From an uncultured bacterium (GTDB lineage Bacteria > UBP14 > UBA6098), in assembly GCA_964606695.1 (NCBI GenBank), contig CAZSHG010000004.1, forward strand, positions 97,725 to 161,724: a DNA stretch of 64,000 bases. Reading direction: 5' to 3'. Shown here one piece after another: positions 13,706 to 53,342 of this stretch. Below the pieces are notes generated by a model. It had not been told where the DNA came from, ran no database searches, and saw nothing but the letters and a program-made list of their open reading frames with translations. The position numbers and the translations under genes were made by a program. The first letter of the stretch is position 1. Every line of letters starts with the position of its first letter.

Positions 13706-14740
13706 ATGAACTGGAAACTTCTGGAAGAGCTTTGTAATACCCCCGGAGTCCCCGGGCACGAGCGCAAGGTGGCCGAGATTTTCAAGCGCGAAGCCGAGGG
13801 GATCGCGGTGGAATCGTGGTTCGATAACGTCGGCAACTGCATAGTGCACGTCGGCGGGGAAGGCCCGGTAGTGGCGCTGGACGCCCACACCGACGAGGTC
13901 GGTTTCATCGTCTCGCACGTCGATGACGAGGGCTTCATTCGCGTGGTCCCGCTGGGGGGCATCGACCCGCGAGTTTTTTACGCGCAACGCGTCGTCGTCC
14001 ACGGCACCGAGGATTTGCCGGGCGTTGTAGGCGCGGTTCCGCCGCATCTTCTGAACAAAAACGCCGACCGCGACAAGGCAGTGCCCATCGAGGACGCCTT
14101 CATCGACCTGGGCCTCCCCGGGGATAAGGTCAAACAGAAAGTCCGCATAGGGGACGTGGTCACCTTCGACAGCAAGTTCGAGGATTTAGGGGACGTGGTC
14201 ATCGGGAAGGCGTTCGACGACCGGCTGGGCCTGTTCGTCATCCTCGAGGCTATTAAAAAAGCTAAGAAAATCGCCTGCGACCTCTATCTGGTGGCGACGG
14301 TTCAGGAGGAACGCGGCCTCCGGGGCGCGACCTGCGCGGCTTTCACCGTCAACCCGGACATCGCCATCGCACTGGAGGGGACTTTTGCGAACGACCTGCC
14401 GGGAGTGCCTTCGCACAAGCGGCTGGCCACGCAGAACAAGGGCGCAGAACTCCGCATCACCGACCGCGCCGTCATAGCCGACCGCGCGCTGGTGGACTAC
14501 CTGGCGGAAATCGCCGACGGCGGCGGCATCGACCACCAGTTCGTGGTGAAAAACGCCGGCACCACCAACGCCACCGCCATCGAGCTTGCCTCCGGAGGCA
14601 CCCGCGTGGCGGCAATCTCCGCGCCGGTGCGATATATTCACAGCCCCATCGGCATGGTCAACAAGCACGACATCGAATGCCAGATAGACCTCCTGGCGAA
14701 ATACCTGGAAGTCGCCGACAAAACCCCGCCGCGGCGGTAG
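13706..14740 (+). CDS. M42 family (FrvX/CelM-like) aminopeptidase. The gene is distinctly GC-rich compared with its neighbours.
   Basis: 344 aa with M42 architecture (GHERKVAEIF..., ALDAHTDEVGF, GKAFDDRLG, EERGLRGA). Its last about 70 bp and terminator are duplicated downstream. Confidence 0.8.
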   Translation: MNWKLLEELCNTPGVPGHERKVAEIFKREAEGIAVESWFDNVGNCIVHVGGEGPVVALDAHTDEVGFIVSHVDDEGFIRVVPLGGIDPRVFYAQRVVVHGTEDLPGVVGAVPPHLLNKNADRDKAVPIEDAFIDLGLPGDKVKQKVRIGDVVTFDSKFEDLGDVVIGKAFDDRLGLFVILEAIKKAKKIACDLYLVATVQEERGLRGATCAAFTVNPDIAIALEGTFANDLPGVPSHKRLATQNKGAELRITDRAVIADRALVDYLAEIADGGGIDHQFVVKNAGTTNATAIELASGGTRVAAISAPVRYIHSPIGMVNKHDIECQIDLLAKYLEVADKTPPRR

Positions 14741-14798
14741 TTACGCTACCCCTAAAAATTTCCCCCGGCTCCCGCGCTCCGCGTGGGGGCCTTTTTTA
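14668..14798. repeat. Direct repeat copy 1 (131 bp, identical to 15711..15841). It covers the 3' end of the M42 gene, its stop and a rho-independent terminator.
   Basis: Base-by-base reading shows an identical 131-bp string (cgacatcgaatgccagatagacc ... gcgtgggggcctttttta) at both positions. Confidence 0.85.
14762..14797 (+). terminator. Rho-independent terminator of the M42 gene (GC-rich stem CCCCC...GGGGG followed by T6).
   Basis: cccccggctcccgcgctccgcgtgggggcc followed by tttttt. The same structure recurs at 15805..15840. Confidence 0.6.
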
Positions 14799-14993
14799 TG
14801 CTCGTATTCTTCTTTTCGAGATAGTAATCTGTTTACTGGAGGAGCGAAATGCACATAACAACGGGGAAAAGGGGCGATCACAAGGAATCGCCCCTACGGT
14901 TCGCACGAAGCGTCTTATCCGGTCGCGAATCCACCGGAGGTGGTTGAGCACAAACGGCTGCGGCCCTGCCGCCGGCTGGCTGGAAATTGAATC

Positions 14994-15030: not shown

Positions 15031-15327
15031 ATGAAAAATAAGGAACAAATAAAATCTCTGATCTCGGCAAACCTGGCGACAATCAAAAAGCGGTTTGGCG
15101 TTTCCTCCATCGGCGTGTTCGGATCTTATGTTCGCGGCGAACAGACCGAAAACAGCGACCTCGATATAATTGTCGTTTTCGAGCCGGGACACAACGACCT
15201 GTTCAATTATTCCCGCCTGAAGACCTATCTTGAGGAATTATTCGGTCTGGAGATCGATCTGGTAATTCAAAACGGCATTAAGCAAGAACTTCGGGATAAC
15301 ATACTCGGAGAGGTTCAATATGCCTGA
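15031..15327 (+). CDS. mnt: Nucleotidyltransferase-domain protein (MNT-type), the antitoxin partner of HepT in type VII toxin-antitoxin systems.
   Basis: 98 aa with the minimal nucleotidyltransferase motif GVFGSYVRGEQTENSDLDIIV (GS...D.D). It overlaps the downstream HEPN gene by 8 nt. Confidence 0.85.
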   Translation: MKNKEQIKSLISANLATIKKRFGVSSIGVFGSYVRGEQTENSDLDIIVVFEPGHNDLFNYSRLKTYLEELFGLEIDLVIQNGIKQELRDNILGEVQYA

Positions 15328-15673
15328 CAGCAGGAGAACCGACCTCCATTTTATTGAAGACATCCTGGTTGCGATTGAGAAGATCGAGCGCTATGTTGGG
15401 GATATGGATTTCGAGAGTTTCGACGCTAACGATATGGCCAAAGACGCGATTATAAGGAATTTTGAGGTGATCGGGGAAGCGGCGCGGAATATTTCGGATG
15501 AGATGCGCGCCAGATATCCTTTTGCCGAGTGGAAAGAGATGACCTCCTTTCGGAATGTTCTTATTCACGGCTATTTCACCCTGAGCACCGAGACGATCTG
15601 GGATACGGTAAAAAAGAACCTCGAACCGCTGAAAGCCCACCTGTTAGAGATTAAAAAGGCCGAAACAAGATGA
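15320..15673 (+). CDS. hepT: HEPN-domain toxin (HepT/DUF86 family) with the R-x4-HxY motif.
   Basis: 117 aa with FRNVLIHGY (Rx4-6HxY HEPN RNase motif). Paired with the MNT gene in the canonical antitoxin-toxin order. Confidence 0.85.
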   Translation: MPDSRRTDLHFIEDILVAIEKIERYVGDMDFESFDANDMAKDAIIRNFEVIGEAARNISDEMRARYPFAEWKEMTSFRNVLIHGYFTLSTETIWDTVKKNLEPLKAHLLEIKKAETR

Positions 15674-15680
15674 CCATATA

Positions 15681-15783
15681 ACCCGGCGACGCCCAATTCG
15701 CCGACGGCGGCGACATCGAATGCCAGATAGACCTCCTGGCGAAATACCTGGAAGTCGCCGACAAAACCCCGCCGCGGCGGTAG
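15681..15783 (+). pseudogene. Degraded duplicate of the 3' end of the M42 peptidase gene, in frame through the TAG at 15781-15783. It probably carries an internal deletion relative to the intact copy.
   Basis: The stretch ttcgccgacggcggcgacatcgaatgccag fuses two sequences that lie about 150 bp apart in the intact M42 gene (atcgccgacggcggcggcatcgac at about 14507 and cacgacatcgaatgccag at about 14665). The identical last 24 codons and stop follow. Confidence 0.5.
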
Positions 15784-15841
15784 TTACGCTACCCCTAAAA
15801 ATTTCCCCCGGCTCCCGCGCTCCGCGTGGGGGCCTTTTTTA
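15711..15841. repeat. Direct repeat copy 2 (131 bp, identical to 14668..14798), including the duplicated terminator.
   Basis: Identical string on direct reading. It is immediately followed by an RBS and ATGCACATCACAA, the start of the next gene. Confidence 0.85.
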
Positions 15842-15891: not shown

Positions 15892-16788
15892 ATGCACATC
15901 ACAATCGAACAAAACAAAGTCATCGTCAACCTCGACGAAAACGAGTTCCCAGCCTTCGAGGCGATGTTTCGGAACCTCGAACTGGACAAATTCGTCCAAT
16001 GCGATTTTCGGGATTTCGATTTCGGGGATTACGGATCGAAGCGAAAGCTCCTGCCTATGCACCTATGCCGAACAATCGGCGAGGCGAACCTTGGAAGCGA
16101 CCCCTTCGCAACCGTGTCGCTCTATCCCTTCTGGAAACACGGTTTTGCTTTTGGGGCGGATGATAACCTGATAATCGCGCCGGGAGTGGAGGACCCACAC
16201 AAGAAAGCCGTTGCCGCGGACGAGTTCGGCATGGGCTTCTGTTGCTGGGCGATGGAGGAGCTGTTCAACTGCGACACCTGGGCGGACTGTTCCGCGCTGA
16301 TAAAGATGGGCGCGGTGTTTCCGGTGGGAACGAAACGCCCGGATTTCGTATGCACCCTCCCCGACGGCTCCCTCGGCGTGTTCGAGGCGAAGGGCACGAC
16401 CGGCACGGCGGGCAACCTCGCGCTAAGTCAGGGCAAAATCCAGACTCAGGGCATAACCGCAGACGACCCAATCTCCCTGCGCGTGGTTGTAGGATGCGCT
16501 CTCGGCGGCGACACCACGCGAATAGTTCTCCTCGACCCGCCCCCCTCGACTCCCCTCGGGGACCGGCCCTCGAACGGAGAACGGGACGAAAGGTCGTTGA
16601 GCGGAGCCGAAACGAACGGTGTGAAAACCAACCTGACCGCCGACCTCGTAAAACGCGCGGCGAAAGGGATGCGCACCCAGACCCAGACGCTGCAAACCGT
16701 ATTCCGCTCCCCCACCGCCGAACTCAACCTCAAACGCAAGGATTACAAAGACGACAAAGGCCACGGCTGGCTGGAGATTAATCGATAA
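15892..16788 (+). CDS. Hypothetical protein with a PD-(D/E)xK nuclease-like core and a GC-rich, Pro/Thr/Arg-rich C-terminal tail. The likely start is MHITIEQ at 15892; the ORF track extends it to 15826.
   Basis: The motif arrangement AADEFGMGF ... RPDFVCTLPDGSLGVFEAKGTTG fits E ... PD ... ExK of the restriction-endonuclease fold. This is a pattern-level inference with no family assignment. The 3' third of the gene (about 16400-16790) is very GC-rich. Confidence 0.4.
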   Translation: MHITIEQNKVIVNLDENEFPAFEAMFRNLELDKFVQCDFRDFDFGDYGSKRKLLPMHLCRTIGEANLGSDPFATVSLYPFWKHGFAFGADDNLIIAPGVEDPHKKAVAADEFGMGFCCWAMEELFNCDTWADCSALIKMGAVFPVGTKRPDFVCTLPDGSLGVFEAKGTTGTAGNLALSQGKIQTQGITADDPISLRVVVGCALGGDTTRIVLLDPPPSTPLGDRPSNGERDERSLSGAETNGVKTNLTADLVKRAAKGMRTQTQTLQTVFRSPTAELNLKRKDYKDDKGHGWLEINR

Positions 16789-16886: not shown

Positions 16887-19766
16887 TTGGTTCCAAAAGG
16901 GGTTTTCCAAATGAGCAGTCCACATCAATGGCTTTTAGATTTCCAGGAAACTGGAAATACGACTATTGAAGGGATTGTCTCGGTCGATAACTATTCCCTA
17001 AACGACTTGCCTCCCGATTCTATCCCTATAATGGAAAAAGCCGAGGAATACGGAGCAAAAGCCGTATTCTTTGAAAAGGAGCGGGAAGGCAGACCTCCAA
17101 TTGCACAAGCCTTCATCTTTGTTTGCGACGAACAGGCCGATAAAGAAAGATTTGCTAAACTGCACCAGCGGATGTGGAGCTGGGGCGGCGTTCCTCTGGT
17201 CTATAGAGTTACACCGGGCAAGGTAGAGTTGTTCCGGTGTGCCCATAAGGCGGATTTCGAAAAAAACGGTGAAATCAGTTATAAAGCCTACAAGACTTTA
17301 AAAACTGCTGCAAAGATTGCGAATGATCCGTGGTGGGATTCTGACCGCCTTTATTATGGAAGTATATGGGACGATCCGACAGCTTGCAAAAAACTCCTAT
17401 CAGGTAGCCGGGCGGCGCAGAATACTTTGATTAAAGAGGTAAAAGCCCTCAACACTAAATTAGAGGAAAAAAGCCACTTAGATAGGCCACTTCAGCGCAA
17501 ACTACTTATTTTGTCTTTGATGATCGCATACCTCGAAGAACGGAAGGTCCTTACCGAAGATTATTTCTATAAGTTTAAATCCGGGGCAAACGAATTTTTT
17601 GAAATACTTAAAGATGGCGAAGCGCTGGTAAATCTCCTTGAAAATCTCGAAGAGAGATTCAACGGCCAGATTTTCACTTTATCGCCGGAGATGAAAACGG
17701 AGCTACGGGAAAATCCTGACCTTAGCGAATTCGTGAGGCTTATCGAAGGAATAGAAGACACAAGCGGACAATTAAATCTTTGGAAAAGGTACTCGTTTGC
17801 CGATTTACCAGTCGAATTAATAAGCCACGTTTACCAGCTTTTTGTCGAAGATAAAGACACTGCCGTTTATACCCCGCCTTTCCTCGTGAAATTAATGTTA
17901 GGAGAAGTTCTCACCAAAGAACGGCTGGATAGACTAATAAAAGAGGAAGAGATTATTCTGGACCCGGCTTGCGGCTCTGGCGTCTTTTTAGTCGAAGCTT
18001 ATAAACGCCTTGTGCTACATTGGAGGGCCGAAAAAAATTGGGAAGAGAAACCAGGTGAAGATGACTTAAAAGAACTTTTAACGAAATACATCTATGGCAT
18101 TGATAAAGATAAAGGGGCGACGGAACTAACCGCTTTCAGCCTTTGCCTTGCGCTTTGCGATGCACTTAAACCGGACGAGATTAGTGATAGTAGAAAGATA
18201 TTCCCTCCACTTCTGGGCAAAAACGTTTATGCCATGTGTTTCTTCGAAGCGAGAGAACAGAACAAGATAGAAAAGGACGTCGGGATAATTGTCGGAAATC
18301 CGCCCTTTAAATCTGAATTAATGACTGATGGGGCTAAGAGCGCCTATGAACGATACAACAAGGAATATGCAGATGAAAGAGGCAAATTACCCGACAAGCA
18401 AATAGCCTATCTCTTTCTCCATAAATCGATGGAGATGCTAACTCCGGGCGGTGTTCTCTCGATGCTCCAACAATACAGCTTCTTGTATAACGAACAATCG
18501 ATAAGTTTCCGGAAGAAGTTTTTCGAGAAATGGGATGTTCGAGAAATCCTCGACATGGTTTCTATAACCGGCCTTTTTAAAAAAAGTAAAAAGAACACAA
18601 AGGTTGTTGTTATCGTGGCTGAGGCGAAAGAACCATCTCCAGAGCGAAAGATTCTGCACGCTACTTTCCGACGTAGCGGTAGAACTCATGCCGAACAAGG
18701 TTTCAATATTGATTACTACGATTTACATTGGTTAAAACAGGAAACTGCCGTTGAAAGCCCCTGGATTTGGCGTTCGGATTTGTTTGGAGGTGGTCGAGTT
18801 TTTAATCTAATTGAGAGATTGAAAGAGTACCGGACTCTAGAACAATATGCAAATGAACAGGATTGGGACCATGGGGAAGGCTTCATCAAGGGAGGAAAAG
18901 TAAAAAGAAAACCAGCAAAACATATAACCGGAAGCTTATTAATTAGACCTTATCAATTAGAAGAAGAAGAGATTAACATTGAGACTTTACAAAAGGTAGA
19001 AGAAACGAATTTTAGGTCGGCTTATTCTAAGAAGCGATTTACTGCTCCTATGGTTCTTGTTCGAGAAAACGAAAACCTTGCGGTTAAGTACTTTTCATCT
19101 GGTTATTATACTTATGAAGATAAAATCGTAGGCTTCTGTGTCGGAGATGGGAAAGATGATAATTTATCTTTGTTATTTAATTGGTTTAAAAGTAATCGTG
19201 AAACACTTATAGCCTTGGTTTGTGCAGGAGGAACTACCAACTTTACTCAAAGAGATTCGCAATTAAGCTTATCTGATATACGAAGCTTACCGTCCCCTGA
19301 CATCGACTTGGATTTATCGTTTACCGAGAAAATCGTCGTATCTGATATTGTCGAATATTACCGTGAGTTAATTAGAAAGGGCCAAAATTCGGACGCGATG
19401 ACAAAACCGGGCATAGATGCCCTCCCTGATTTCAATGGAATCTATACCGGTCAGATAAACGCGATCTATAAAGAGAAAAAACTAAAGGCACTCGAACCTC
19501 AAACATGGGCGGGGTTCCTATGCCAGCCCTATGTTTTTGGCGATGGGGAAGTCGATTGGTCGGGTTCGGACGGACTGAAAGACAAATTAGAAAAACTAAT
19601 GAAGGAAAAACGGCCTTATGGCCTGAATATTTATCGAATAGCACGGATTTATGACGGCCCATTCATTTTTCTCTTAAAACCAAACGTTTTGCGTTATTGG
19701 CTGAGGTCTATTGCCCTACGCGATGCCGACGAAACCTTGTCCGATTTATGGAAGCAGGGCTTCTGA
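16887..19766 (+). CDS. Large (959 aa) gamma-class N6-adenine DNA methyltransferase fusion protein. It has an about 330-aa N-terminal domain, a methyltransferase core and an about 340-aa C-terminal, presumably target-recognition, region. The size class matches Type IIG/IIL (Eco57I/MmeI-like) enzymes.
   Basis: Motif X AVYTPPFLV preceded by LISHVYQLF, motif I ILDPACGSGVFLVEAY, motif IV IIVGNPPF. The size and domain order resemble single-chain RM enzymes, but no convincing nuclease motif could be confirmed by eye in the N-terminus. About 41% GC versus about 60% in flanking genes. Confidence 0.8.
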   Translation: MVPKGVFQMSSPHQWLLDFQETGNTTIEGIVSVDNYSLNDLPPDSIPIMEKAEEYGAKAVFFEKEREGRPPIAQAFIFVCDEQADKERFAKLHQRMWSWGGVPLVYRVTPGKVELFRCAHKADFEKNGEISYKAYKTLKTAAKIANDPWWDSDRLYYGSIWDDPTACKKLLSGSRAAQNTLIKEVKALNTKLEEKSHLDRPLQRKLLILSLMIAYLEERKVLTEDYFYKFKSGANEFFEILKDGEALVNLLENLEERFNGQIFTLSPEMKTELRENPDLSEFVRLIEGIEDTSGQLNLWKRYSFADLPVELISHVYQLFVEDKDTAVYTPPFLVKLMLGEVLTKERLDRLIKEEEIILDPACGSGVFLVEAYKRLVLHWRAEKNWEEKPGEDDLKELLTKYIYGIDKDKGATELTAFSLCLALCDALKPDEISDSRKIFPPLLGKNVYAMCFFEAREQNKIEKDVGIIVGNPPFKSELMTDGAKSAYERYNKEYADERGKLPDKQIAYLFLHKSMEMLTPGGVLSMLQQYSFLYNEQSISFRKKFFEKWDVREILDMVSITGLFKKSKKNTKVVVIVAEAKEPSPERKILHATFRRSGRTHAEQGFNIDYYDLHWLKQETAVESPWIWRSDLFGGGRVFNLIERLKEYRTLEQYANEQDWDHGEGFIKGGKVKRKPAKHITGSLLIRPYQLEEEEINIETLQKVEETNFRSAYSKKRFTAPMVLVRENENLAVKYFSSGYYTYEDKIVGFCVGDGKDDNLSLLFNWFKSNRETLIALVCAGGTTNFTQRDSQLSLSDIRSLPSPDIDLDLSFTEKIVVSDIVEYYRELIRKGQNSDAMTKPGIDALPDFNGIYTGQINAIYKEKKLKALEPQTWAGFLCQPYVFGDGEVDWSGSDGLKDKLEKLMKEKRPYGLNIYRIARIYDGPFIFLLKPNVLRYWLRSIALRDADETLSDLWKQGF

Positions 19767-20497
19767 TGTGCAGGAGAATGCTGTCTGATATTGAGCCCAT
19801 TGCACATTCGGGCAGAATAGGGGAAGAGGTCCTTGCACGGAATACAATTCGATTCGAGCTTATCGAATTTATTAGAACGGAATTACCAAAATGGCGCGAT
19901 GACCCGGAAAGGCCTATGGAACATGCCGAGACAGTTTTAACCAGCCAGCTTTGTAGCCATATGAATAGCGTATCAAGAATATCAGAAGCATGGCATAGGA
20001 TTCAATTTGGAACAGAAATCCGAGATGAGAATAATAAAAGAGGGACAATCGACTTTGCACCAAAACCATGTTCTGTGGTTTTGATAATTGAAGGTCGCAA
20101 ATATACTCATTTTGATATGATTTTCCCAATCGAGTGTAAACGCTTACCTACTCCGGCCGGTACAAAAAGAGACGAAAAAGAATATGTAATTGTGGATAGT
20201 GGGTCTACGGGTGGGATCCAACGATTCAAGTTCGGTTTTCACGCATCGGATCATGATTTTGGTGCAATGATAGCCTATGTTCAGGATGCCATTGGTTTTA
20301 GCCGATGGCTGACCAGAATAAATGGATGGGTTCACGACCTCGGGCAAGCTACTGATTCTGTTTGGTGCGACGAAGATCGTTTGGAGCTTTTAGAAGAAGA
20401 TACGGATAACCGTGTTTGTTCATTGAAATCGAATCATCATCGCCAAAACGGCCTCGACGACATCGAGCTCCGACATTTATGGATTGATATGAATTGA
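19767..20497 (+). CDS. Hypothetical protein (about 243 aa) with a possible PD-(D/E)xK-like nuclease motif. The likely start is the ATG at 19767 (MCRRML; TGATG overlap with the methyltransferase stop); the ORF track starts at 19697.
   Basis: GTIDFAPKPCSVVLIIEGRKYTHFDMIFPIECKRLP contains D ... E.K spacing compatible with a restriction-endonuclease-like core (weak). About 43% GC and tightly coupled to the methyltransferase gene. Confidence 0.3.
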
Positions 20498-20696
20498 AGT
20501 AATTCGCGGGGAGCGAAATTCCCCTTGACAAATGACAGTTCGTATTTTAGCTTTTGTGTAGCGGTTTGGTTATGTGGATGGTCTTTGATAATGTTAAGTG
20601 TTCTCGGGGGGTGGAAAATCACCTTTTTTGGGATTTTGGGAGCGAAACTGGGGGTTTTTACGTAAGTGGTTGATTTATAACGTGTAGGAGCGGAAA

Positions 20697-20923
20697 ACAC
20701 GGGCGCTTTTTGATGGACACGCGCACTTTTCGTTAAAACACGAGCATATTCAAGAAAACATGGGCGCTTTCTCCAAATACATTAGCATTTTCTCCAAATA
20801 CACGGGCACTCTACCAAAATACATTGGCACTTTCGGGAAATACACGCGCACATTTCAGAAAACACGAGCACTTTGCTCAAATACATTGGCACTTTCGCCA
20901 AAAACATTAACGCTTTTGTAACC
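20697..20923. repeat. Tandem array of 11 imperfect repeats of 20-21 bp (consensus about ACAYNRGCRCTTTCNNNAAAT), ending 11 bp before the start codon at 20935.
   Basis: Units read directly: acacgggcgctttttgatgg / acacgcgcacttttcgttaaa / acacgagcatattcaagaaa / acatgggcgctttctccaaat / acattagcattttctccaaat / acacgggcactctaccaaaat / acattggcactttcgggaaat / acacgcgcacatttcagaaa / acacgagcactttgctcaaat / acattggcactttcgccaaaa / acattaacgcttttgtaacc. The period equals two helical turns, with an A-tract in each unit. Confidence 0.8.
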
Positions 20924-20934
20924 GGGGAGAGATC

Positions 20935-21936
20935 ATGGCCAAGAAAACAAGAGAACCAGCAAGGTTAGGGCACGCGGACTATTGCAAGTGGTTCGAGCAG
21001 ATGATCGGATTCAAGGAAGATCGTATTGCCGACGGAACCTGGCCGACTCATCTAAACGCAAATTTCCAGGCACTGTTCAATGAATTATGGGACGCCTGGG
21101 ACACTTACGATCGTTTGAAAAATGAGCTTAAAGGGACGACATACAAGGCGTATGACGATGCCTCGAAGCCGGTTTATGATCGGTTAGTCTCGCTTCGAGA
21201 GCTAATTCCGACGCTTTTCGACGGCGACGACGCGGTTCTCGGCGAATTCGGCATGGCTCGAAAAGTGCCTCGCGACAAAGAGGATTTGTTCACGATGGCG
21301 AGCGGGTGCCTGGAGCATTGGGACGACATCACTGACCCGGACGTCCCGCCCGAATATGCGCCCGTTGCGGATATGTTCGCGGAGTTTCAGGATGAATACG
21401 ACACGTTTCAGGCCGCTTACACGGCGTATATCGCCAAAACGCGAGATGTCGAGGAGGCTCAGAATTTATTGCTCGAGAAACGCGAGCTTTGCCATCACAA
21501 GGAGCGTCTAATTTTCCACTGGTTCAAGGGATTACATAAGGACGGCGAGGCTGAATGGTGGACCGCGACGCTCTGGGGCAGGACTGGTGGCGGTTCTGGC
21601 GGCGGGGAGGAGCCGGGGCCGAGTAGCTGGGAGGATGCGCCGACGAATTTCGTCTTGAAAGAGGGTGTTGCGGGGTCGGCGTTGCTTCAGGCGGATGTCC
21701 ATGCCGATGCCGACGGATGCGCGGTGTTCATGGCCGAGACGGAACTGGGCGTGGCGGAACCGCCTATGCGTCCGGGCGAGCCTCTCGAGCCGCTGATTAC
21801 GCCAATCGAACCCGGAAAGTTTTCCTATAATTTGAATATTACGCCGAACCGTCGGGTGTGGTTTTGGATCTGCCATGTCAAGGACGGCGCATGGGGCGCG
21901 ATTGCGGGGCCGGAGTGGATCGAGATCGAGAAATAA
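20935..21936 (+). CDS. Hypothetical cytoplasmic protein (333 aa). Acidic helical N-terminal domain, Gly-rich linker (GRTGGGSGGGEEPGPSS) and C-terminal domain of about 110 aa.
   Basis: Clear RBS (GGGGAGAG) 4 nt upstream of the ATG. No recognisable catalytic motif. Preceded by the 21-bp array and followed by a perfect palindrome. Confidence 0.5.
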   Translation: MAKKTREPARLGHADYCKWFEQMIGFKEDRIADGTWPTHLNANFQALFNELWDAWDTYDRLKNELKGTTYKAYDDASKPVYDRLVSLRELIPTLFDGDDAVLGEFGMARKVPRDKEDLFTMASGCLEHWDDITDPDVPPEYAPVADMFAEFQDEYDTFQAAYTAYIAKTRDVEEAQNLLLEKRELCHHKERLIFHWFKGLHKDGEAEWWTATLWGRTGGGSGGGEEPGPSSWEDAPTNFVLKEGVAGSALLQADVHADADGCAVFMAETELGVAEPPMRPGEPLEPLITPIEPGKFSYNLNITPNRRVWFWICHVKDGAWGAIAGPEWIEIEK

Positions 21937-21960
21937 TATAGAATTTATAATGTAGAATGG

Positions 21961-21990
21961 CGTAGGGGCAATTCATGAATTGCCCCTACG
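21961..21990. repeat. 30-bp perfect palindrome cgtaggggcaattcatgaattgcccctacg, 25 bp after the stop of the orphan gene.
   Basis: Self-complementary on direct reading. It could be a stem-loop terminator, although no T-run follows, or a dimeric protein-binding site. Confidence 0.8.
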
Positions 21991-22067
21991 ATTAGTTTAT
22001 AGGCGGCTCGAGGTGGTCGTCTTTTTTTATCCCTCGTCATTGCAATGTTATATTTTAACATTAAAAG

Positions 22068-22105
22068 ATCGAGCGTCTCGCTCGATGTGCGGCGAGACGC
22101 CGCAC
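22068..22105. repeat. Two adjacent GC-rich hairpins (atcgagcg-tct-cgctcgat and gtgcggcg-aga-cgccgcac).
   Basis: Inverted repeats read directly from the sequence, each with a 3-nt loop. Possible terminator or insulator between the accessory stretch and the TonB-receptor operon. Confidence 0.6.
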
Positions 22106-29606: not shown

Positions 29607-32600
29607 TTAATCCTCTTCTCGGATATAGAACTCGTTTCTTCTTATCACGGCCCTTTCAGGAACCGTAGCTGAATCGGAAACTTCGGGGTCGTATTCCGGC
29701 CGCCGTCTTCTCGATACGTATGTAACCGATGTATTAATAACGGCACCCGTGCTATTTATGGTTACCATCAGGACATCGGTGCTCGGAGCGGTGGAATCTG
29801 GGGCTGTCAGTGTCCAGCTCGTCTCGCCGGTTGCGCCGGTTACTGCGTTACCGCCGCCGGATGCGCTTGCCGCGGAAAGCGTTACGCTCTCGCCGGCAAT
29901 TGGGTTATCCCATTGATCGACGATACGCGTGCTGACCAGATATGAAGTATTATATGGAACTTCAGACGGAGCCGTTATCGACGAATGACTGGAATTCGGT
30001 AGATCGTGCTTCAGATATACAACATTATTAGCAGTAACACCGCCAATATTAGCCGTAACGTCCACTATACGAGCCGTATCCTGGTTTGCGTAATCATCCC
30101 GGAACAGGTTAGCGCCGGTATAATTACTAATTGCGTAACTGCCGTAGCATTCGTTAATCGAGGTAACCGGCGAGGACGCCGTTCCCCAATCCGCGATAAC
30201 ATTCACGCTGGTTCCGTTAACTACGGGACGGCGGTTAACGTCCCAAATCGAGACCTGGATTTCCGCCGTTCCGGTAGCATCGGCATATACCATATATGGC
30301 GAGATGGAAATACTAATCGAGTCCGCCGGGCCGCTGTTGTAGAAGAAAGTAGTATCGGCACGGGTTCCGGATGTATCTCGTGTTTCGGCGGAGATAGTTA
30401 CGATGCCGCTATCCCTCGGCGACGATGAATACCAGGTAGCGAAAGCGAATCCGGAATCGTCCGTCACCGACGATGTTGTAACCGCGCCCTGTAACGCGGT
30501 GAACCATACTGCCGTTCCGGGCGCAACCGGGTTATCGTAAACATCGGTAACGATTGCCATCACTGAGTTCGCTACGCCGTCGGTATCGAAACCCGGAACA
30601 TTGCAATCGCCTACGGAGACCGAAACATGATACGGTAATCCGCTTCCTATAGTAATCCTCGGCGCACGCGAATCGATAGATCCGCCGGCAGGAATATATG
30701 CCACCGCCTCGATGACCATAGACCCAGATCTGTCGCCGCTTCGTGCCGCGACGCTGGCGCGACCGGCCATCGTATATACCGTATCGCTGACCAATCCGCC
30801 GCCTGGAATAAGTTCCGGATTGATAGAGCCACCGATCGGGTAATCGACGATTCGGAATATTACTGCGCAACTATCGCGAACCGGATTATCGTATTGATCG
30901 AATATTACCGCCTCTATAACCGCCTGGTCTATTTCGCCTACACCGCGGATATAAATAAAGTCTCTACTGACATCGATATCCATCGTATGAGGTGGGCCTG
31001 CTTTAAGGAGAATATTTGCGTGCGCTGTGATTTCATCGACGGTCGCCGTAACACCGGTCATACCTGCTTTCAGGCCGGGCGTGTAGAACGTCGAGAAGTA
31101 ACCGCTGTCATCGACTGCGACTATCGGATCGGCGATACTACCCGTTCCGATGCTATCGACAGTGAGATATACATAAGTTCCCGCCGCGACGGGATTTCCC
31201 ACGCCGTCGGTTACCATACCGCTAACCACACTCGACGTTGTGCTTCCGACTGTAGCCGTATCGGGCACAACGGATAACTCGATATCCGCTGGCGAGCCGG
31301 CTTCGTAGGTAACAGCGACCCTGGACGTTTCTCCCAGGCATGTCGCCTTTATAGTATCCACGCCGCTTGTATCGGCGGCTACCAATAAGGCTTCCGCGAT
31401 ACCTCCCGATAGATAATCGAAAGGAGTAATCAGGCCGAGATCCGCCGTAAATCTCACTATAACTCCGTTTGCAATCGGATTACCATCGGAGTCGAGAACT
31501 AGCGCTCTGACATCCGCAGTTGAAGATCCGTCGGCAGGCAAGCCTCGCGGAGTAATGCTGAGGATTATCGTATCTACCGAATCTGGCACGAAGTCGATAG
31601 GCAGATAACCTGTCGCTCCGCCGCTTGTAGCCATCAGATATGTCGAGCCCACAGAATCGGGAGAGGTAATTCTGAATCTAACTCCGCCGTTGCCGTCCGT
31701 AACCGCTATCGGTGGGCTTACGTATCCGAATTCGAGTGTGAAGTTCACCGCCTGGTCGGGGATGGGATTGCCAAAGGCATCCTCTACCCAGGCGGAATCG
31801 CTGAGCGTATCCGCGCCATCCGCAATTAATTGGACGAAACTCGTATCGAAACGCACAACTGCCGCTTCACCGGGACTGAAGTAAACGGACTGCGTATCCG
31901 AACATACGGTATCGCTTCCCATTGGTATATATGCATAAACATAAGTGCTTCCCGCTATGGTTGGTGCGTAAAGTTCGACGGTGGCCTGTCCGCCTTCTGT
32001 GTCCTGCCTGTTCGGGACTATTAAAGCCTCTACGTTTCCCGGCGGGACGAGTTGCGTGAATCGCACAATCGTGCCGTCGGCTATCTCGAAACCGGTCGAG
32101 TCCGTTACGAAGGCTCTAACGTTCGTGCTCGAAATACCGTCGGCATCCATGTATCTTGTGTCTATCGAAAGGCCGATATCCGCTACGGTAGTCGGCATGA
32201 GTTCTACCTGCGTTATACCTGTTGCCGAACCACAGTTAGCGGTAATTACGGCCATTCCCGCATATCTACCTGCTCTGAATCTTATATCGAAAGCTCCGGT
32301 ATCGTTTGTAGCGGTAACAGGTGTAATCGTGCCGTAATCAGATGGATTGATGCTCAAATTAACTATTTGTCCCGCATTCACCGGATTGCCTTCTTCGTCG
32401 TAAACGACTCCGTAAATACGCGTTGTATCCGTTTCATTGGCAAGTAGCGATGAATCTGCCGGCCACATGCGTATCAGATACGGATCGCCAGGCACGAATT
32501 CTATTGATACTGTGTCGGTGGAATCGCCGCTGGTGGCGACGAGGGTATCCCACCCAACGCTTGTATATGAAGTAACAGTCCCATAAACTACGCCATCGAC

Positions 32601-35600
32601 AGTAGTGGCAAACAACGGCGAAATACTGCCGAGATTCAATTCACTGAATCTCACGGGGGTGCCGTCCGAAACGGGGACACCAACGGTATCCAGGACATAA
32701 CAGGTAACTCCCGCCGTCGATGTTCCGTCGGCTGTCAACCTGGACGGCGACACCGTGAGTAACACGTCGCCGACGTCGGTGGGCGCAAATTCGATAAGTA
32801 TATTCGCGCCCGTGGCACCCGCACTTGCGGTTATGTTACTGAAACCGGCGGACGTTCCGGATAGTAGTCTCGCTCTGGCTCTGCCCAGCGTATCGGTATA
32901 TGCGGTCGATGGAATAGTTCCCAGTGAAGCTGAGAAATTAACTGCAACTCCACTACCGACCGAATTACCGAATATATCCTGAACATAGACCATTATCGAT
33001 GTTGTGTCCGCCCCATTAGCGACGATAACCGTGTCGGAAGCTTCTATATACATAATTTCCGGCGGACCTGGGATAAATCTCGCCATAGTCGTATCTACCG
33101 CGGTCGTTCCCGCACTTGCGACCACGAATACGGAATCGGAAGGCGTAGTGCTGGCGATGAGCGTGCTGGTAGCAACGCCTCCTGCCGTATAACCAATCAC
33201 CGGCGAGACAATACCGTCTGAGGTTGAGAATTTAACGATAGTCCCATCCGAAACGGGGTAGCCCGACGTATCGAATACTACTGCAGTCAAATCCGCGTTA
33301 TCCGAACCGTTCGCCGTAAGTGTAGGAGGATTGACCACAAGATACAGTGTATCGGCTATCAACGGGATGAAATTCAATGTAGCGTAACCCGCGGCACCTC
33401 CGCAGGTAGCGGAAATACTCGCCGTTCCGAAATCGGCGCTGGAAACTACTACAGCAGAGGCTCTTCCAAGAGTGTCCGTTGCAGATGGGGAAGTTATACT
33501 TCCAATCGTTATCCCGAAGTTTACGGACAGACCAGGCGAAACCGTGTTTCCGAAGGCGTCGGTTATTTCTACCGTAACGAGTTGTGTATCCGCACCGTCG
33601 GCATACATATCGCGTATCGGCGGGATAAAGGAGACTATAGCCGGCGGTCCGGGAGTAAACTCAACAACCGCTGTATCCGCAAGCGTAGCGCTAACGCTGG
33701 CTATAACAGTGTCATAACCGGCGATAACACTCGATAATAAGGCCGTGGTTACTTTGCCGCCTTCGGTATAACACGTTGTAGGACTCAATATTCCGCTTCC
33801 AATATTCTGGAAAGTAACAGGCGTATTATCAGACACAGGTCTTGTTCTTCCCAGGGAATCGATATTGAATACCGTTGCCAATACATTACTCGTAGATACG
33901 CCGTCCGCCGTAAGTCGCACGGGATTTGCGACTATGCTAATTAGATCCGCATCGAGTGTTGTAAACTCGTAAGGTTTACTTGCCACCGCTCCCTCACTTC
34001 GTGCTGTGATAAATGCAGGACCGGCTTCCGTGCTCGAAACGAGCGTCCTCGCCGAACCGCTGGTCGAGTCCACCGCAACGGGCGAAATTATTTCTCCCCG
34101 GCTCGTCTCGAATGTAACAGCGGTTCCAATATCCACGGGGTTAGTGTATTCATCGTAAACGTGGACAACGACGGGATAGCCTGAACCGTCGGCAGGCAGA
34201 GTCGTGGTATACATCGTATCGAAGATTATTATAGCAGGTTCGCCCGCCTGATAGGTTACCTCGAAGGTATCCGCGACAGTAGCGCCGACGTTGGCGATTA
34301 TCCTGCCCGTTCCGACGCCGATTGGCGCGGTAAGTTCGACATGCACCGTGCCGGCGTCCGTGAATACTATCCGTGGGGTTATAATCCCTCGAATGAAGCT
34401 ACCTGAAGTGTCCTGTGTGAACGATACCCTCGTGCCGTCGGAGACGTAAAGCCCACTGGAATATACCCATGCCTTAACATTGGCAGTCGATGTTCCGTCG
34501 CCCTGGAGAATTGCGGGATTGATAGTCATTACTATTTCATCCGCGATGAGCGAATCCAGCCGAACATCGACGAATTGAATCGCTTCCTGACAACGGATTG
34601 TTATAAGCGCGTCGCCAACTTCGGTTCCGGCGGTAAGTCTGGTGAATACATAACCAGCGGAATTCGTATATCCTGTCGGTATAACCGAGCCGAGAGTCGT
34701 CTCGAAACTAACCGGAGTGCCCGGTCTAACGGGATTAGAGAACCGGTCGTAAACTGTGCATTCCACTGCGGTAACTGAAGCGCCGTCGGCATACAACACC
34801 GAATCCTGGGCATAAGCGATTATCCTGTTGGCGACACCGGGATCGAGTCTTATGTTGACTGTTCCTGTATCGTCGTCGGCTATGGCTAGAATCTGCACAC
34901 TACTTGCGGCTATCGTATCCGCTCTTATAGTTGTTATCGCTATCCCACTGTCGGTATATGCTTCATTAGGTTCGGCATAAGCGAGCCCCGACGGCACGAC
35001 GAAATCCACGAGAGTCTCATCGGACACGAGGTAACCGCCCGGCGAGTAAACATGCGCGCGAACCGAAGTCGAAGAAACGCCGTCCGCCGTAAGCGAACTA
35101 CTGTCCGAATATACGATTATATTAGATACAGTGGTAGGCCTGAAATTAATCTGGTTGTAACCTACAGCCGATCCGGAATGCGCCATTATAACAGCGTCTC
35201 CAGGATTAAGACCGGACGTAAGGACAACTCTCGCAATACCACTCGTATCCGTAATCGCGCTTGAGGTAATCGTGCCGAGGCTAGTTGTAAATGTAACTTC
35301 TTGACCGGCTCTCAAGTGGTTGCCGTATTGGTCGTTCACGCGGGCATATACATACATGTGATCCCATCCGTCGGCGTTTAGGGTATCTTGTGGAACGTGA
35401 GTTGAATCTCCCCAGATTTCTATTGTCGCCGCGGAACCGGGATGTATAAATACGCGGACGCTGTCCATAATCGAGTCGCCCGGCGTGTAAACTTTGCCTA
35501 CAATCCATGCCTCGCCGTAGCCGACATCGGTACTCGACGTGAAGCTGGTAACGCACGAACCGCCCAGAGTTAGTTTGGGCGAAACGACCGTCCCGCCGGT

Positions 35601-38600
35601 ATCGGCCGGATGCACCTGGAAATAAACCTCGGTGCCGTCCGATGCCGGACTACCCTCCGTATCGTAAACGTCGCACGTGAGGACAGATTGCGACATACCG
35701 TCAGCCGTTACTACTACCGGATCGGCCGTCATCAGGAGATACCCGACGTCGCTTTGCCGTATGGTTATCGGTGTAATCTCGAATGCGTCTCCGCTACTCG
35801 CCCATACACGGGCAGTTCCGGGATCGGTTCCCGCGGTAAGCGTGGTGAAAGCCTCTCCGACGGAATTCGTCATCGTAGAGGTCGGGTAAATTGACCCGAG
35901 ATCGGTGCCGAAAGAAACGTTATGCCCGGACATAAGTGGATTATTGAAATCGTCGTATAACGTAGCCGTGAGGCCGGTATTATCCCGTCCGTTCGCCGCG
36001 ATTACGTCTGTATCCGGGATAAAGGTGATATATGAAAGATCACCCGGAAGAATCTGGACGAGCACCGAATCGCGGACGGAATCCACCGCCGCGCCTACTG
36101 CGCCTTTAATCCAGACCCTGCCTCTGATAGTCTTCACGCGGAACGTTGTATTTGCTTCGCCACTCTCTGTGTATCCGACTTCTGGAATCAAGTTTCCGAA
36201 AGTATCCGCTGGCGTGGGCGGAGATGTAAAACCGTCGGGAATCATCGAGAAATCGACACGGGTTCTATCGCTCATCGGATTTCCGAGAGTATCATATACA
36301 TTGGCTTGAACGGCCGTTTGCGAGAACCCATCCGCCTGTAGAATCGGGTTTTCGACTGTAATCGCGATATCATTCACCGCGGAATCGCTACGGGTGAACT
36401 CGACGAAGGTATCACCGCGCGCGTCGCCCGCCCTTGCGGTTACCCTGGCGACACCCACGTTATAAGTGCTCATCAGGTCGAAAATCACCATGCCGCGCGA
36501 ATTCGTTTCGTCCGAAGTCCTCGAAAGGATGCCCATACTGGCCTCGAAATCGACCTCGGTGCCGGCGGTCATAGCGTTGTAATATCTATCGTAAACATAT
36601 ACACTACAGGTCGCCACCGAGAAACTATCCGCGGGAATAACCGCAGGCGTTGGCCAGATGTCTATAATATGCGGATCGCCCGGGATAAGCTCGCACCACG
36701 TCGTATCGGCGATTGTATCGTTGCCTATATAAACCTCGGCGACGATATCGCATACACCCGCAGTAGTATCCGCACTAAATTCGGTTACGAATTCGCCGCT
36801 GTCGGTATAAACGGTCGCGGGAGAAATAAATCCGTAATTCGTGCCTGCGCTATCCGGTATCGGATAGAGGTGCACAGGTGTCATATACATAATAGGATTA
36901 CCGATAGAATCACGAACCACACCGCTAATCGTAGCGGTTGAATGCCTGTCCGCCGGGATTATATCCGGTTCGATGGACACGAAAACGTCGCCGATACCAA
37001 AGGGCACGAAATCGATATGTCCGATACCAATAGCTCCCTCGCAGGTTGCCGTAATCACGGCGGTTCCCGGAGTTGTGCCGCTTCTGAGCAGAACGGTCAC
37101 TACTCCTGTGCTATCGATCAGAGTATCGGTAACCGTAACGCCCAGCGTATCTATTGTTCCCAGATTCGATTCGAATATGACAATCTTCCCGTTTTTGACA
37201 CGATTGCCCTGGACATCGCGAACTATCGCAGTTACAGAGCATGTGTCCATTCCATCGGCGATAAGACTCAATTTGGATGGGGTTACCTCGATAACATGTG
37301 GCGGACCAGGAACGAAATTAATAAGGGTCGTATCCGCGACAGCCATGCTGTCCGTCGGATCCCAGGGATCTCCGACGTATGCGATTATCGTATCCGGCTC
37401 GAGATTCGATCGAGACGGGCTTCTGAGAGTAACCACACCCTCGCCCATCGAACTGTATCCCACTCCCGGGAATATTGTTCCGCCCGATGAATAGAAATAA
37501 ATTGGTGTTGAATCCGAGACCGCCGTTCCTGAATCATTAAGCGCGTAAGCATGAACGAGACACGTGTTTAGACCGTTGGCCGTCATAGAAAGGCTGTCAG
37601 CGAATACGTCGATTTCTGCAACTTCGAGAGGCCTGAGTTCTATAAGTCCTGCACCGGTGGGCCCGCCCGAAACGTCCGCACTGATAACGGCTATTCCGGT
37701 AGATACTCCGGCCCTGAACGTAACGACGCTCGGAGCATCGTTATCTGTATAAACATAGGGCGGTATAACAGATCCCAGACTGGTGCTTGGACCGACCGTT
37801 ATATCTACTCTCGTCCCAGCCTCCACCAGGTTATCGTATTCATCCATGACTTTGATTGTGCATGCAGAGGCGCTGACGCCATCCGCTGTAAGAATCGGAT
37901 ACTCCGGGATAACCTCGACGTGATGCGGTGGTCCCGGCACGAACCAGACGTTGATTGTATCGCTGAGTGTCGTATCGATTCTTGCGGAAACCCATGCGGT
38001 TCCTGTGCTCGGTTCGGAATATAGAGATACTACGGCGTTTCCATCCGTAGTAGTTTCCAGTGTATCGATAACGCCGAAATCGGCCCCGGTGGAATCCACG
38101 GAATGGAACACGACTATCTGGCCGTCGCTGACGGGCTGGCCGAGTTCGTTGAGAACCCTCGCGGTAATAACCGAATAACTTTCACCGTCGGCGGCTATCT
38201 TGCGCGGACTTGCCCGTAAACTTAGATACGCCGGAGGTGAAATTCCTATATTTACGGTAACCACGGCATGTATTCCCTCGGCGGTAATATCCACTCTGGC
38301 AATTGTAGGAACACTTGTCGCAGTCAACACGGCGGTAACTTCGCCGCGCGAATTTGTATATCCATAAACTGGGCTTATATTTGCACCGGTCGCCGAAAAA
38401 TCTACTCGAACGCCTGAACCGACGGGATTATCATATCTGTCATACAGAATCGCATGGACAATAGTAAAGTCTTCGCCGTTGGCCACAAGAGCTGAATCTT
38501 CTGCCCAGGCATCGATACTGTCAACCGGGCCAGGCACCATATCTATAAATATGCCTCCGCAGGTAGTATCCACGGAATCGTGGGTGCAGGCTGTAAACCA

Positions 38601-52277: not shown

Positions 52278-53342
52278 ATGACGCGAGTTTTATTTATAGA
52301 GCCTTATTACGGCGACAGTCATGCACACCTCGTGGATGGTTTGATGAAAAGGCTTCCATGCGAGTGCGAACTACTCAGTATGTCGCCCCGTAAGTGGAAA
52401 TGGCGGATGCGCGGCGGCACTATTTATCTGGCGAAAGAAGCGGGGAAGATCGCTCCGTGCGATATAATCTTCGCCGGTGATTTTCTCGATCTGCCCGTTT
52501 TTCTTGCTCTCGGGCCAAAATGGCTTTCCAACTGCCGTAAAATTGTCTATTTTCATGAAAACCAGCTTACATATCCGGTCCAGGTCGAGGACGAACGAGA
52601 TTTCCATTTTGGCCTTACGAACGTAACGACGGCGCTGACCGCGGATAGAATCGCTTTTAACAGCGAATTCCATCGAAGGGAATTTATCGAGGCAATAGGT
52701 GAATTTATAAAGAAATTCCCGGATTATCGTCCAAAGGACGTCGGAAAGGAAATTAAACTTAGATCGTCGATAAATCCGATTCCTCTCGATATACAGAATA
52801 TCCCCCGGAAAATAAATAGAACCGGTCGGCTTCGTATCCTCTGGAACCAGCGATGGGAATTCGATAAAGCGCCTGAGACGTTGTTTGAGATTTTGTTTTC
52901 GCTGGTCGATGCCGGAGTTGAATTCGAGATTGTAGTTGCCGGGGAGGTTTTTAAGGATTATCCGGAGATATTCGACGTTGCCGAAGGAAGGTTACGGAGC
53001 AGGATTGTGTCCTGGGGATATATCGAAAATAGGCGGAAATACCTGGAGACTTTAGCCGACTGCGACGTAGTGGTTTCCACCGCTATTCACGAATTTTTTG
53101 GGATAGCCGTAGCGGAAGCTGTAGCGGCTGGATGTCGCCCGCTACTACCGAGAAGACTCGCCTACACCGACATTTATCCCGATGAATTCCTATATTCCGA
53201 CGAGGACGATTTTCAGGAACAGCTTCGGAAAATGGCGACTTGCCCGGAGATACTGAGAAATGACGATTACAGGAAATTAGTAGAACACCTCGATTGGCGG
53301 GAACAAATTCAGCTTTATGAGGATCTCATATTGAATTGGTAA
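52278..53342 (+). CDS. Glycosyltransferase, GT4-like / DUF3524 family.
   Basis: 354 aa. N-terminal DUF3524-like region (LFIEPYYGDSHAHLVDGL) plus C-terminal GT-B motifs (EFFGIAVAEAVAAGCRPLLP). Confidence 0.5.
   Translation: MTRVLFIEPYYGDSHAHLVDGLMKRLPCECELLSMSPRKWKWRMRGGTIYLAKEAGKIAPCDIIFAGDFLDLPVFLALGPKWLSNCRKIVYFHENQLTYPVQVEDERDFHFGLTNVTTALTADRIAFNSEFHRREFIEAIGEFIKKFPDYRPKDVGKEIKLRSSINPIPLDIQNIPRKINRTGRLRILWNQRWEFDKAPETLFEILFSLVDAGVEFEIVVAGEVFKDYPEIFDVAEGRLRSRIVSWGYIENRRKYLETLADCDVVVSTAIHEFFGIAVAEAVAAGCRPLLPRRLAYTDIYPDEFLYSDEDDFQEQLRKMATCPEILRNDDYRKLVEHLDWREQIQLYEDLILNW

Follow-up and report, generated by a model that had tools for sequence, protein, structure and literature searches.

Background

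The wider GTAG REP superfamily was defined by Di Nocera et al. 2013 (PMC3733652). Its Proteobacterial representatives, the GTAG REPs and BIMEs of E. coli, Pseudomonas and Stenotrophomonas, carry GTAG at the base of a GC-rich hairpin of 20-40 bp and favour the space after unidirectional or convergent genes, and their mobilisation by RAYT has been proposed (PMC3733652). In these classical REPs the GTAG is unpaired and present at one end only, and the elements, imperfect and specific to a species, mostly occur as inverted dimers. The TnpA-REP protein of E. coli is an HUH/Y1 enzyme; its substrate is the hairpin with its GTAG foot in single-stranded form, which it recognises, cleaves and rejoins, a reaction that is thought to spread REPs (PMC6006769, PMC3479197, PMC8266576). 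REPINs (Bertels and Rainey 2011), pairs of REPs that fold into a hairpin, are likewise non-autonomous and rely on a single-copy RAYT.

The closest described system is subclass 2.4 of Quentin et al. 2018 (BMC Genomics 19:475, PMC6006769), whose TnpA-REP proteins are characterized by the motifs NH[IFV]H, WQ and YIxNNP (Table 1 of that work). The REPs of this subclass are long, have three G-C pairs at the stem base and come in a canonical or a 'double foot' form, the latter defined by a 5′ GT[AG]G plus a 3′ C[TC]AC; the same authors suggest that a double-foot REP can be derived from a REPIN through loss of its centre. [quoted passage not shown] Bertels et al. 2017 found the equivalent Group 4 in 17 bacterial classes.

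Here we analyse a perfect 30-bp palindrome in a 64-kb stretch of bacterial DNA (the window, by which we mean the whole stretch analysed). The palindrome follows the last gene of an accessory stretch, and an earlier note had offered for it the roles of a terminator, a binding site for a dimeric regulator or recombinase, and an island boundary or attachment element. We find that it is a further copy of a published REP class, and very likely a double-foot REP of subclass 2.4.

Results

A self-complementary 30-mer past the end of a 333-aa gene

The features at the centre of the analysis are the following.

20935 to 21936, plus strand: gene of the 333-aa protein, with an elongated N-terminal helical bundle, a Gly-rich linker and a C-terminal FN3 domain.
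21961 to 21990, no strand applicable: palindrome CGTAGGGGCAATTCATGAATTGCCCCTACG, read here as a double-foot REP in the 3′ UTR of the 333-aa gene.
21962 to 21989: core of the palindrome, GTAG-GGGCAATTCATGAATTGCCC-CTAC, which one extra C/G pair extends to 30 bp.
22068 to 22086 and 22087 to 22105, no strand applicable: two abutting GC-rich hairpins with 8-bp stems.

The gene, the palindrome and the two further stem-loops at 22068-22105 are all present as first described. The 30-mer is self-complementary throughout (15+15) and starts 24 nt after the TAA of the open reading frame. Its GTAG foot occupies 21962-21965 and its CTAC foot 21986-21989, and three G-C pairs form the base of the stem, GGG at 21966-21968 pairing with CCC at 21983-21985. 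About 1e-4 perfect palindromes of 30 bp would be expected by chance in 64 kb, in agreement with the initial judgement that such a structure is improbable by chance. The sequence is unique within the window even when three mismatches are allowed, with 0 matches in 100 shuffles. As DNA the palindrome folds at -14.9 kcal/mol (z -7.9), and as RNA it forms a hairpin of -20.9 kcal/mol. The tail on its 3′ side, ATTAGTTTAT, is T-rich and terminator-like by a loose scan, but holds no U-run. The two inverted units and spacer of a REPIN are not seen: the element is one unbroken palindrome of 30 bp, and the nearest 2 kb contain no second unit. Rfam returned a tRNA alone for the whole window at the gathering threshold and, for the palindrome region with E up to 5, a single miRNA match on the palindrome, which is meaningless.

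The tops of the twin hairpins further downstream, CGTCTCG and CGAGACG, are mutual reverse complements, and a weak T-rich tract lies behind each of them, on one strand for one hairpin and on the other strand for its twin. These hairpins were considered as a repeat family and rejected as such: the window holds no further copy, and 150 loci gave a single match, an unrelated one.

The palindrome is dispersed across bacterial phyla

A set holding one genome per species was scanned with the 26-nt core of the palindrome, leaving the 4-nt loop free. The core matches at least 120 loci, against a chance expectation of about 0.07, and the matches listed fall into some 17 phylum-level lineages, including Cyanobacteria, Chloroflexota, Planctomycetota, Nitrospirota, Omnitrophota, Patescibacteria, Zixibacteria, Balneolota, Ignavibacteria, Acidobacteriota, Spirochaetota and Gammaproteobacteria. 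Hosts among the matches listed comprise Nostoc, Chamaesiphon, Pseudanabaena, Tychonema, Anaerolineae, Dehalococcoidia, Brocadiaceae, Scalindua, Thermogutta, Gracilimonas, Pedobacter, Terriglobia, Coxiellaceae, Binatia and Sumerlaeota, among others, and the palindrome is also present on five cyanobacterial plasmids. Some assemblies hold several copies: one Chamaesiphon contig accounts for four loci, and one Anaerolineae MAG has five copies over four contigs.

Among the matches listed, the 28-nt core GTAGGGGCAATTCATGAATTGCCCCTAC is nearly invariant and the flanks are unrelated; the loop reads CATG in 111 of the 122 copies. Approximately 86% of the copies listed are intergenic, mostly shortly past gene ends. 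Where such a copy separates co-directional genes it lies at a median of 69 nt from the upstream stop and 129 nt from the next start, and convergent contexts outnumber divergent ones by 22 to 8, again among the matches listed. The expectation that the palindrome would be specific to the island is not borne out by these unrelated loci in many phyla, and the check for membership in a widespread family of extragenic repeats, with many unrelated copies, has a positive outcome. Because the palindrome belongs to such a family, spread over many phyla, we reject its reading as an island boundary or attachment element.

As a separate observation, the flanks are extended as locus-specific inverted duplications in 25 of 110 copies, nearly a quarter. 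A literature search with the palindrome sequence and its peptide returned chance primer matches only; the sequence is absent from the Di Nocera supplements, and the exact 28-mer was not found in the searchable literature.

REP-type Y1 transposase genes accompany the palindrome in five loci

All open reading frames of the 120 listed 8-kb loci were clustered in search of a partner. One protein of about 180-200 aa recurs, in five of the at least 120 loci and in five different lineages (Chamaesiphon L010, Zixibacteria L017, Anaerolineaceae L067, Gracilimonas tropica L091 and Dehalococcoidia L098). All five proteins match Pfam Y1_Tnp above the cutoff. The best NCBIfam match of these transposases is REP_Tyr_transpos, at 64-67 bits compared with 19-23 for IS200, a score that lies under the curated equivalog cutoff (67 vs 80 bits). 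They carry the motifs MPNH(V/I/F)H, WQRNYYE and YI(V/I)NNP or YIExNP.

Each of the five Y1 genes either contains the palindrome, or a close variant of it, or has one no more than 200 bp away. In L010, L017, L067 and L091 the palindrome or a variant with two mismatches is found within 200 bp of the Y1_Tnp gene, and in L010 and L091 variants stand on both sides of it. In L067, L091 and L098 the palindrome is also found in frame within the gene, where it encodes VGAIHELPL(Q/R) or a variant directly after the HUH motif and before the Tyr; L017 has a sister palindrome at the same intragenic place, after the HUH motif. The G. tropica protein shares the peptide AIHELP with 79 of its 120 best homologues, a count that is biased upward because the query carries that peptide and the search is word-seeded; many of the other homologues have VGAIHESPLQ, often nested or in tandem. 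The JGI name of several homologues of the G. tropica protein is 'REP element-mobilizing transposase RayT'. By tblastn, the 64-kb window itself contains no RAYT gene.

The palindrome lies between the stop codon and a probable older terminator

Three further elements surround the palindrome.

21935 to 21944, plus strand: AATATAGAAT, a degenerate second copy of AATGTAGAAT.
21949 to 21958, plus strand: the AATGTAGAAT motif, just past the stop codon.
22001 to 22029, plus strand: a weakened hairpin that includes G-U pairs and has T7 after it, probably the 333-aa gene's intrinsic terminator.

Comparison with loci that carry homologues of the 333-aa gene places the palindrome in a pre-existing 3′ UTR. 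The AATGTAGAAT motif is found directly past the stop codon also in L121 (one copy) and L122 (two copies). The hairpin at 22001-22029, which begins 11 nt on the 3′ side of the palindrome, was scored terminator-like by the scan and has an RNA free energy of -9.2 kcal/mol; its homologue in L121, GGCGGC..GCCGCC-T7-ATCCC, reaches -15.5 kcal/mol as RNA, and the T7 is kept in the window version. In the alignment, the palindrome stands between AATGTAGAAT and the terminator in the window only. It is absent past the homologous genes in four loci (L121, L122, L125 and L128), and L121 has an unrelated 9-bp repeat in its place.

Because it separates the stop codon from an older terminator that can still be recognised, we regard the palindrome as an inserted 3′-UTR hairpin; on this alignment, it is not part of the 333-aa gene module. 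The suggested terminator without a U-tract holds in modified form: the position is terminator-like, but the true intrinsic terminator is more likely the hairpin with T7 at 22001-22029, homologous to that of L121, than the palindrome.

A second REP in the window

One more member of the superfamily was found in the window.

14871 to 14897, minus strand: single-foot REP GTAGGGGCGATTCCTTGTGATCGCCCC of the same superfamily, with an 8-bp stem and an 8-nt loop.

This copy folds as RNA at -15.3 kcal/mol, and its 5′ arm, as read from the sequence, matches the copy at 21962 in 12 of 13 positions. Apart from this copy and the palindrome, the window has no GTAGGGGY site and no hairpin with a foot of the GTAGGGG type; a scan for GT[AG]G hairpins gave an additional weak and unrelated match at 53148. 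The window therefore holds one double-foot and one single-foot REP, and the loci of relatives contain 19 canonical GTAG-GGG REPs in 192 kb. Both REPs of the window are situated at edges of the accessory stretch, the palindrome at the right edge and the 14871-14897 copy near the left. With two elements this arrangement is indistinguishable from chance, but a role connected with the boundary keeps a small chance.

The 333-aa family, its repeat array and the neighbouring cargo

The predicted architecture of the 333-aa protein agrees with the helical N-terminal half, Gly-rich linker and beta-rich C-terminal domain that had been described, the last being an FN3 domain, and the 21-bp array reported ahead of the gene is present as well. 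The label of orphan no longer holds, since about 88 relatives at cluster level make this a small uncharacterised family: eight close homologues were found, and a set of 1.8 billion proteins holds 88 representatives at 50% clustering. The N-domain of protein P0003 is 86% identical to that of the window protein and its C-domain 20%, and for P0005 the figures are 33% and 81%; by this comparison the N- and C-domains of the family have separate histories. The protein has no match in Pfam or NCBIfam, nor in the viral contigs, phage genomes and plasmids of IMG/VR, INPHARED and PLSDB.

Several roles for this protein were considered and set aside. Membership of a defence system was suggested only by a weak PADLOC match to Csx1 (E 0.0024, 15 bits), which was taken as noise. 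An iteron-regulated Rep initiator was rejected on the lack of a winged-helix Rep fold or signature and of any plasmid or phage match. Acidity is shared by the whole local proteome, so that of this protein says nothing for a DNA mimic or against DNA binding. Paralogy of the two flanking genes was rejected.

The genes and repeats on the left of the 333-aa gene are as follows.

15892 to 16788, plus strand: conserved 'left' partner gene, 298-320 aa, with a PD...EAK nuclease-like motif.
16887 to 20497, plus strand: variable cargo, encoding a 959-aa restriction-modification enzyme of type IIG and an uncharacterised protein of 266 aa.
20693 to 20920, plus strand: array of 11 phased units of 20-21 bp with the consensus AAAWACAYGGGCACTTTCnnn.

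The array ends 14 bp ahead of the ATG of the 333-aa gene. Arrays are found 50-400 bp upstream of 17 of the 21 homologous genes, with a period of about 21 bp or its multiples (about 42, 63 and 84); their sequence varies from clade to clade and the period is retained. That the period retained equals two turns of the helix suggests proteins bound in phase along the DNA. A role at the RNA level, like that of a type III antitoxin, was discarded: the RNA fold of the array is not significant (z -1.95), and the period favours the DNA level.

Homologues of the left gene, about 55-66% identical, lie upstream of the 333-aa family gene in L128, L133, L137 and L138. The homologue in L149 is weaker and partial (43% over 192 aa), and that of L144 lies downstream of the 333-aa family gene. 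The left gene has no match in Pfam, PADLOC, NCBIfam or PDB. The 959-aa enzyme matches Pfam Eco57I, N6_Mtase and MmeI_Mtase, and PADLOC REase_MTase_IIG with an E-value of 2e-44. Many loci have defence-type genes in this cargo position, upstream of the array, and their kind varies:

Window and L122: type IIG restriction-modification.
L137: NotI and D12 methylase.
L128: Dam, Mrr and ParE.
L125: PAPS-reductase, ATPase and a PP_RS20740-family protein.
L149: AAA and subtilase.
L130: HicA.

Ordinary genes occupy the cargo position in L136, L142 and L146. Defence cargo is often preceded by the left gene of about 300-320 aa with its PD..EAK motif, and the chromosomal neighbours of the module are different in every locus. 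Judged by Por_Secre_tail domains, the source is probably a T9SS-bearing bacterium of the FCB group.

Discussion

All the sequence-level features that define subclass 2.4 REPs are observed in the window palindrome and its associated genes: GTAG and CTAC feet, three basal G-C pairs, a long stem, an extragenic position after genes, cognate Y1/HUH genes flanked by the REP and carrying an in-frame copy between HUH and Tyr, and a patchy presence in Cyanobacteria, the Bacteroidota group and many other phyla. The window copy departs from the published descriptions in being solitary, with no tnpA-REP gene in 64 kb, and neither the identical copies at 120 or more loci across phyla nor the inverted flank extension (25/110) is mentioned in the papers on the subclass. 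Unlike classical REPs, it is a perfect palindrome with both feet paired, a singleton, and identical across phyla; unlike REPINs, it has no spacer or pair of separate REP units and measures 28-30 bp in all. By analogy with these systems, the palindrome would very probably be recognised by a genome-wide RAYT, an HUH/Y1 nuclease related to the IS200 transposase, and not by an island integrase or a dimeric regulator. Of the suggested recombinase or dimeric-regulator site, the RAYT link thus makes the hairpin of a recombinase-like enzyme very probable, and the island integrase and the dimeric regulator fall away.

That the palindrome is instead an attachment site or boundary of the island, or a locus-specific site for a dimeric recombinase or regulator, is a most improbable reading. 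A perfect dyad is what many operators and recombination sites look like, and the two GTAG REPs of the window do lie at or near opposite edges of the accessory stretch, the palindrome on the right; the left copy, however, is a single-foot variant without a repeat match to the right one. The stretch holds no integrase or recombinase gene, four loci have the same gene module without the palindrome, and the same sequence recurs at 120 or more unrelated loci in many phyla. Comparison of homologous loci yields no boundary role, and neither the island boundary nor the attachment element proposed at the outset is borne out.

Evolution of the palindrome in situ, as a terminator or mRNA-stabilising hairpin of the 333-aa gene unrelated to mobile REPs, also appears quite unlikely. 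The distance of 24 nt from the stop, the stability of the RNA hairpin (-20.9 kcal/mol) and the terminator-like score with a T-rich tail speak in its favour, but a proper U-tract is missing right after the stem, homologous loci use a different conserved terminator that is still there 11 nt downstream in the window, and independent evolution cannot explain 28 nt of identity across phyla. This reading is compatible with a secondary role that the inserted REP has acquired. It is scarcely credible, finally, that a RAYT gene decayed here and left only its intragenic copy behind as the palindrome, which would then not be a dispersed REP. RAYT genes of the subclass do contain the same palindrome internally; against this, tblastn with two RAYT proteins aligned only the 10-11 residues encoded by the palindrome, with no flanking similarity, and both the 24 nt upstream and the downstream sequence align with homologous loci that are not RAYT genes. 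The double-foot REP of subclass 2.4 is accordingly the reading that we retain.

As such a REP, the palindrome would have been inserted in the 3′ UTR, between the stop codon and the original intrinsic terminator. With GTAG, stem and CTAC in succession, the foot reads identically on either strand. Following the E. coli example, this copy may have arrived by the cut-and-rejoin route of TnpA-REP, or with horizontally acquired DNA. It would then be co-transcribed with the 333-aa gene, and a stable 3′ hairpin is probably its sole action; this hairpin may retard 3′ exonucleases or aid termination, a suggestion we hold with much less confidence than the REP identity. On this model it would neither mark nor mobilise the accessory stretch.

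The module beside the palindrome recalls plasmid Rep iterons and type III toxin-antitoxin systems (ToxIN), which share with it a short direct-repeat array directly upstream of a gene, here of about 330 aa. The likeness extends to an array that varies in sequence between clades at a constant period, and to a position among defence genes. It is limited in that the units of the window array measure 21 nt as opposed to 34-40 nt. The fold of the 333-aa protein, a helical bundle with FN3, differs from both the winged helix of Rep and the RNase of the ToxN type; there is no plasmid or phage homologue, no terminator between array and gene, and no significant RNA structure in the array. We put forward, as a speculative and on balance doubtful proposal, that the 333-aa protein, the array of about 21 bp and the left gene may frame an undescribed cargo site or small mobile module for defence genes in T9SS-bearing bacteria of the FCB group. 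In such a module the array would be a DNA platform for cooperative protein binding, the shuffled N- and C-domains would reflect two fast-evolving partners, the REP would be a passenger, and the cargo would comprise type IIG and type II restriction-modification, Dam with Mrr, ParE, HicA, the PAPS-reductase/ATPase set and AAA with subtilase.

Recognising the palindrome as a REP avoids misreading a generic repeat as an island boundary, operator or att site, a trap that is likely to recur given that the exact 28-mer is scattered over Cyanobacteria, Chloroflexota, Planctomycetota, the FCB group and candidate phyla. The inverted flank duplications seen in nearly a quarter of these REPs may inform how such hairpins insert or grow. 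These duplications, and the conserved pairing of a phased array of about 21-bp period with a helical/FN3 protein at the ends of variable stretches of defence genes, could matter more than the palindrome itself.

Domain organization and upstream arrays of the 333-aa family

The N- and C-terminal domains of the 333-aa protein (20935-21936) have recombined independently. One homologue, P0003, is 86% identical to the window protein over the N-domain and 20% identical over the C-domain, while in a second homologue, P0005, the corresponding values are 33% and 81%. The domains are mosaic across the Gly-rich linker.

Upstream of 17 of the 21 genes in the family lies a phased tandem array with a period of approximately 21 bp or multiples thereof (~42, 63, 84), instances of which were located in the window and in loci carrying homologues of the 333-aa gene, including the following:

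Phased tandem arrays upstream of 333-aa family genes
Window, 20693-20920
L121, 4960-5195
L125/L128, 5800-5937
L146, 5415-5635

The core motif of the array varies by clade, with ACAYGGGCAC, GGTCGAAC, TGTAGCA, AAAAGCCT and GTCTGGAAGG among the forms observed. Roughly 400 bp 5′ of the ATG, a TTGACA box is present in the window (20525-20530), L122 and L125, and TTGACC occupies the matching position in L128.

Elements downstream of the 333-aa gene

Directly 3′ of the stop codon, one or two copies of a AATGTAGAAT motif are kept in three diverged loci, and this motif could constitute a 3′-UTR or protein-binding element:

Sites of the AATGTAGAAT motif
Window, 21935-21958
L121, immediately past 6241
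L122, immediately past 7011

The tops of the twin hairpins (22073-22079 and 22094-22100) consist of inverted CGTCTC/GAGACG, the recognition site of Esp3I/BsmBI. The neighboring type IIG restriction-modification gene (16887-19766) matches the Alw26I/Eco31I/Esp3I methyltransferase family weakly (E 2.8e-9, far below cutoff), and the concurrence of an Esp3I-type site with an Esp3I-family match is probably coincidental.

Other features of the window

A single 5268-aa ORF with a pI of 4.1 spans 29607-45413 on the minus strand. The composition of 59001-60000 is strongly anomalous (AT skew -0.51, GC skew -0.21); this segment falls within a 685-aa ORF (58655-60712, minus strand) and may represent a low-complexity or repetitive coding stretch.

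Inverted flank extensions of REP copies

Among REP copies in other genomes (L001-L120), locus-specific flanks lengthen the palindrome by 4-19 bp in 25 of 110 cases, when 0.43 would be expected. In the L010 copy the flanks add 19 bp per side, yielding a 66-bp perfect palindrome, and nested or partial copies occur in L120 and L079. Either palindrome centers are targeted, or insertion or repair copies the flank in inverted orientation.

Left gene and toxin-antitoxin cassettes

The left gene (15892-16788) encodes an uncharacterized product of ~300 aa that carries a restriction-nuclease-like PD...EAK motif; comparison with Pfam, PADLOC, NCBIfam and PDB sequences gave no match. In several loci, homologues ~55-66% identical to it sit at the end of the variable cargo opposite the 333-aa gene family.

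Near this gene, a 131-bp perfect direct repeat (14668-14798 and 15711-15841), comprising the final 73 nt of an M42 peptidase gene and its terminator, encloses a 1043-bp insert that contains the single-foot REP and a toxin-antitoxin pair:

15031-15673, nucleotidyltransferase/HepT (MNT-HEPN) toxin-antitoxin pair, inside the 1043-bp insert

The same arrangement is found in L128, where a 75+89-aa gene pair is enclosed by a duplicate of the 3′ end of the left gene (an 82-aa ORF, 90% identical). This shared bracketing pattern suggests that small toxin-antitoxin cassettes insert with long target duplication, which could arise, for example, through single-crossover integration of a circle.
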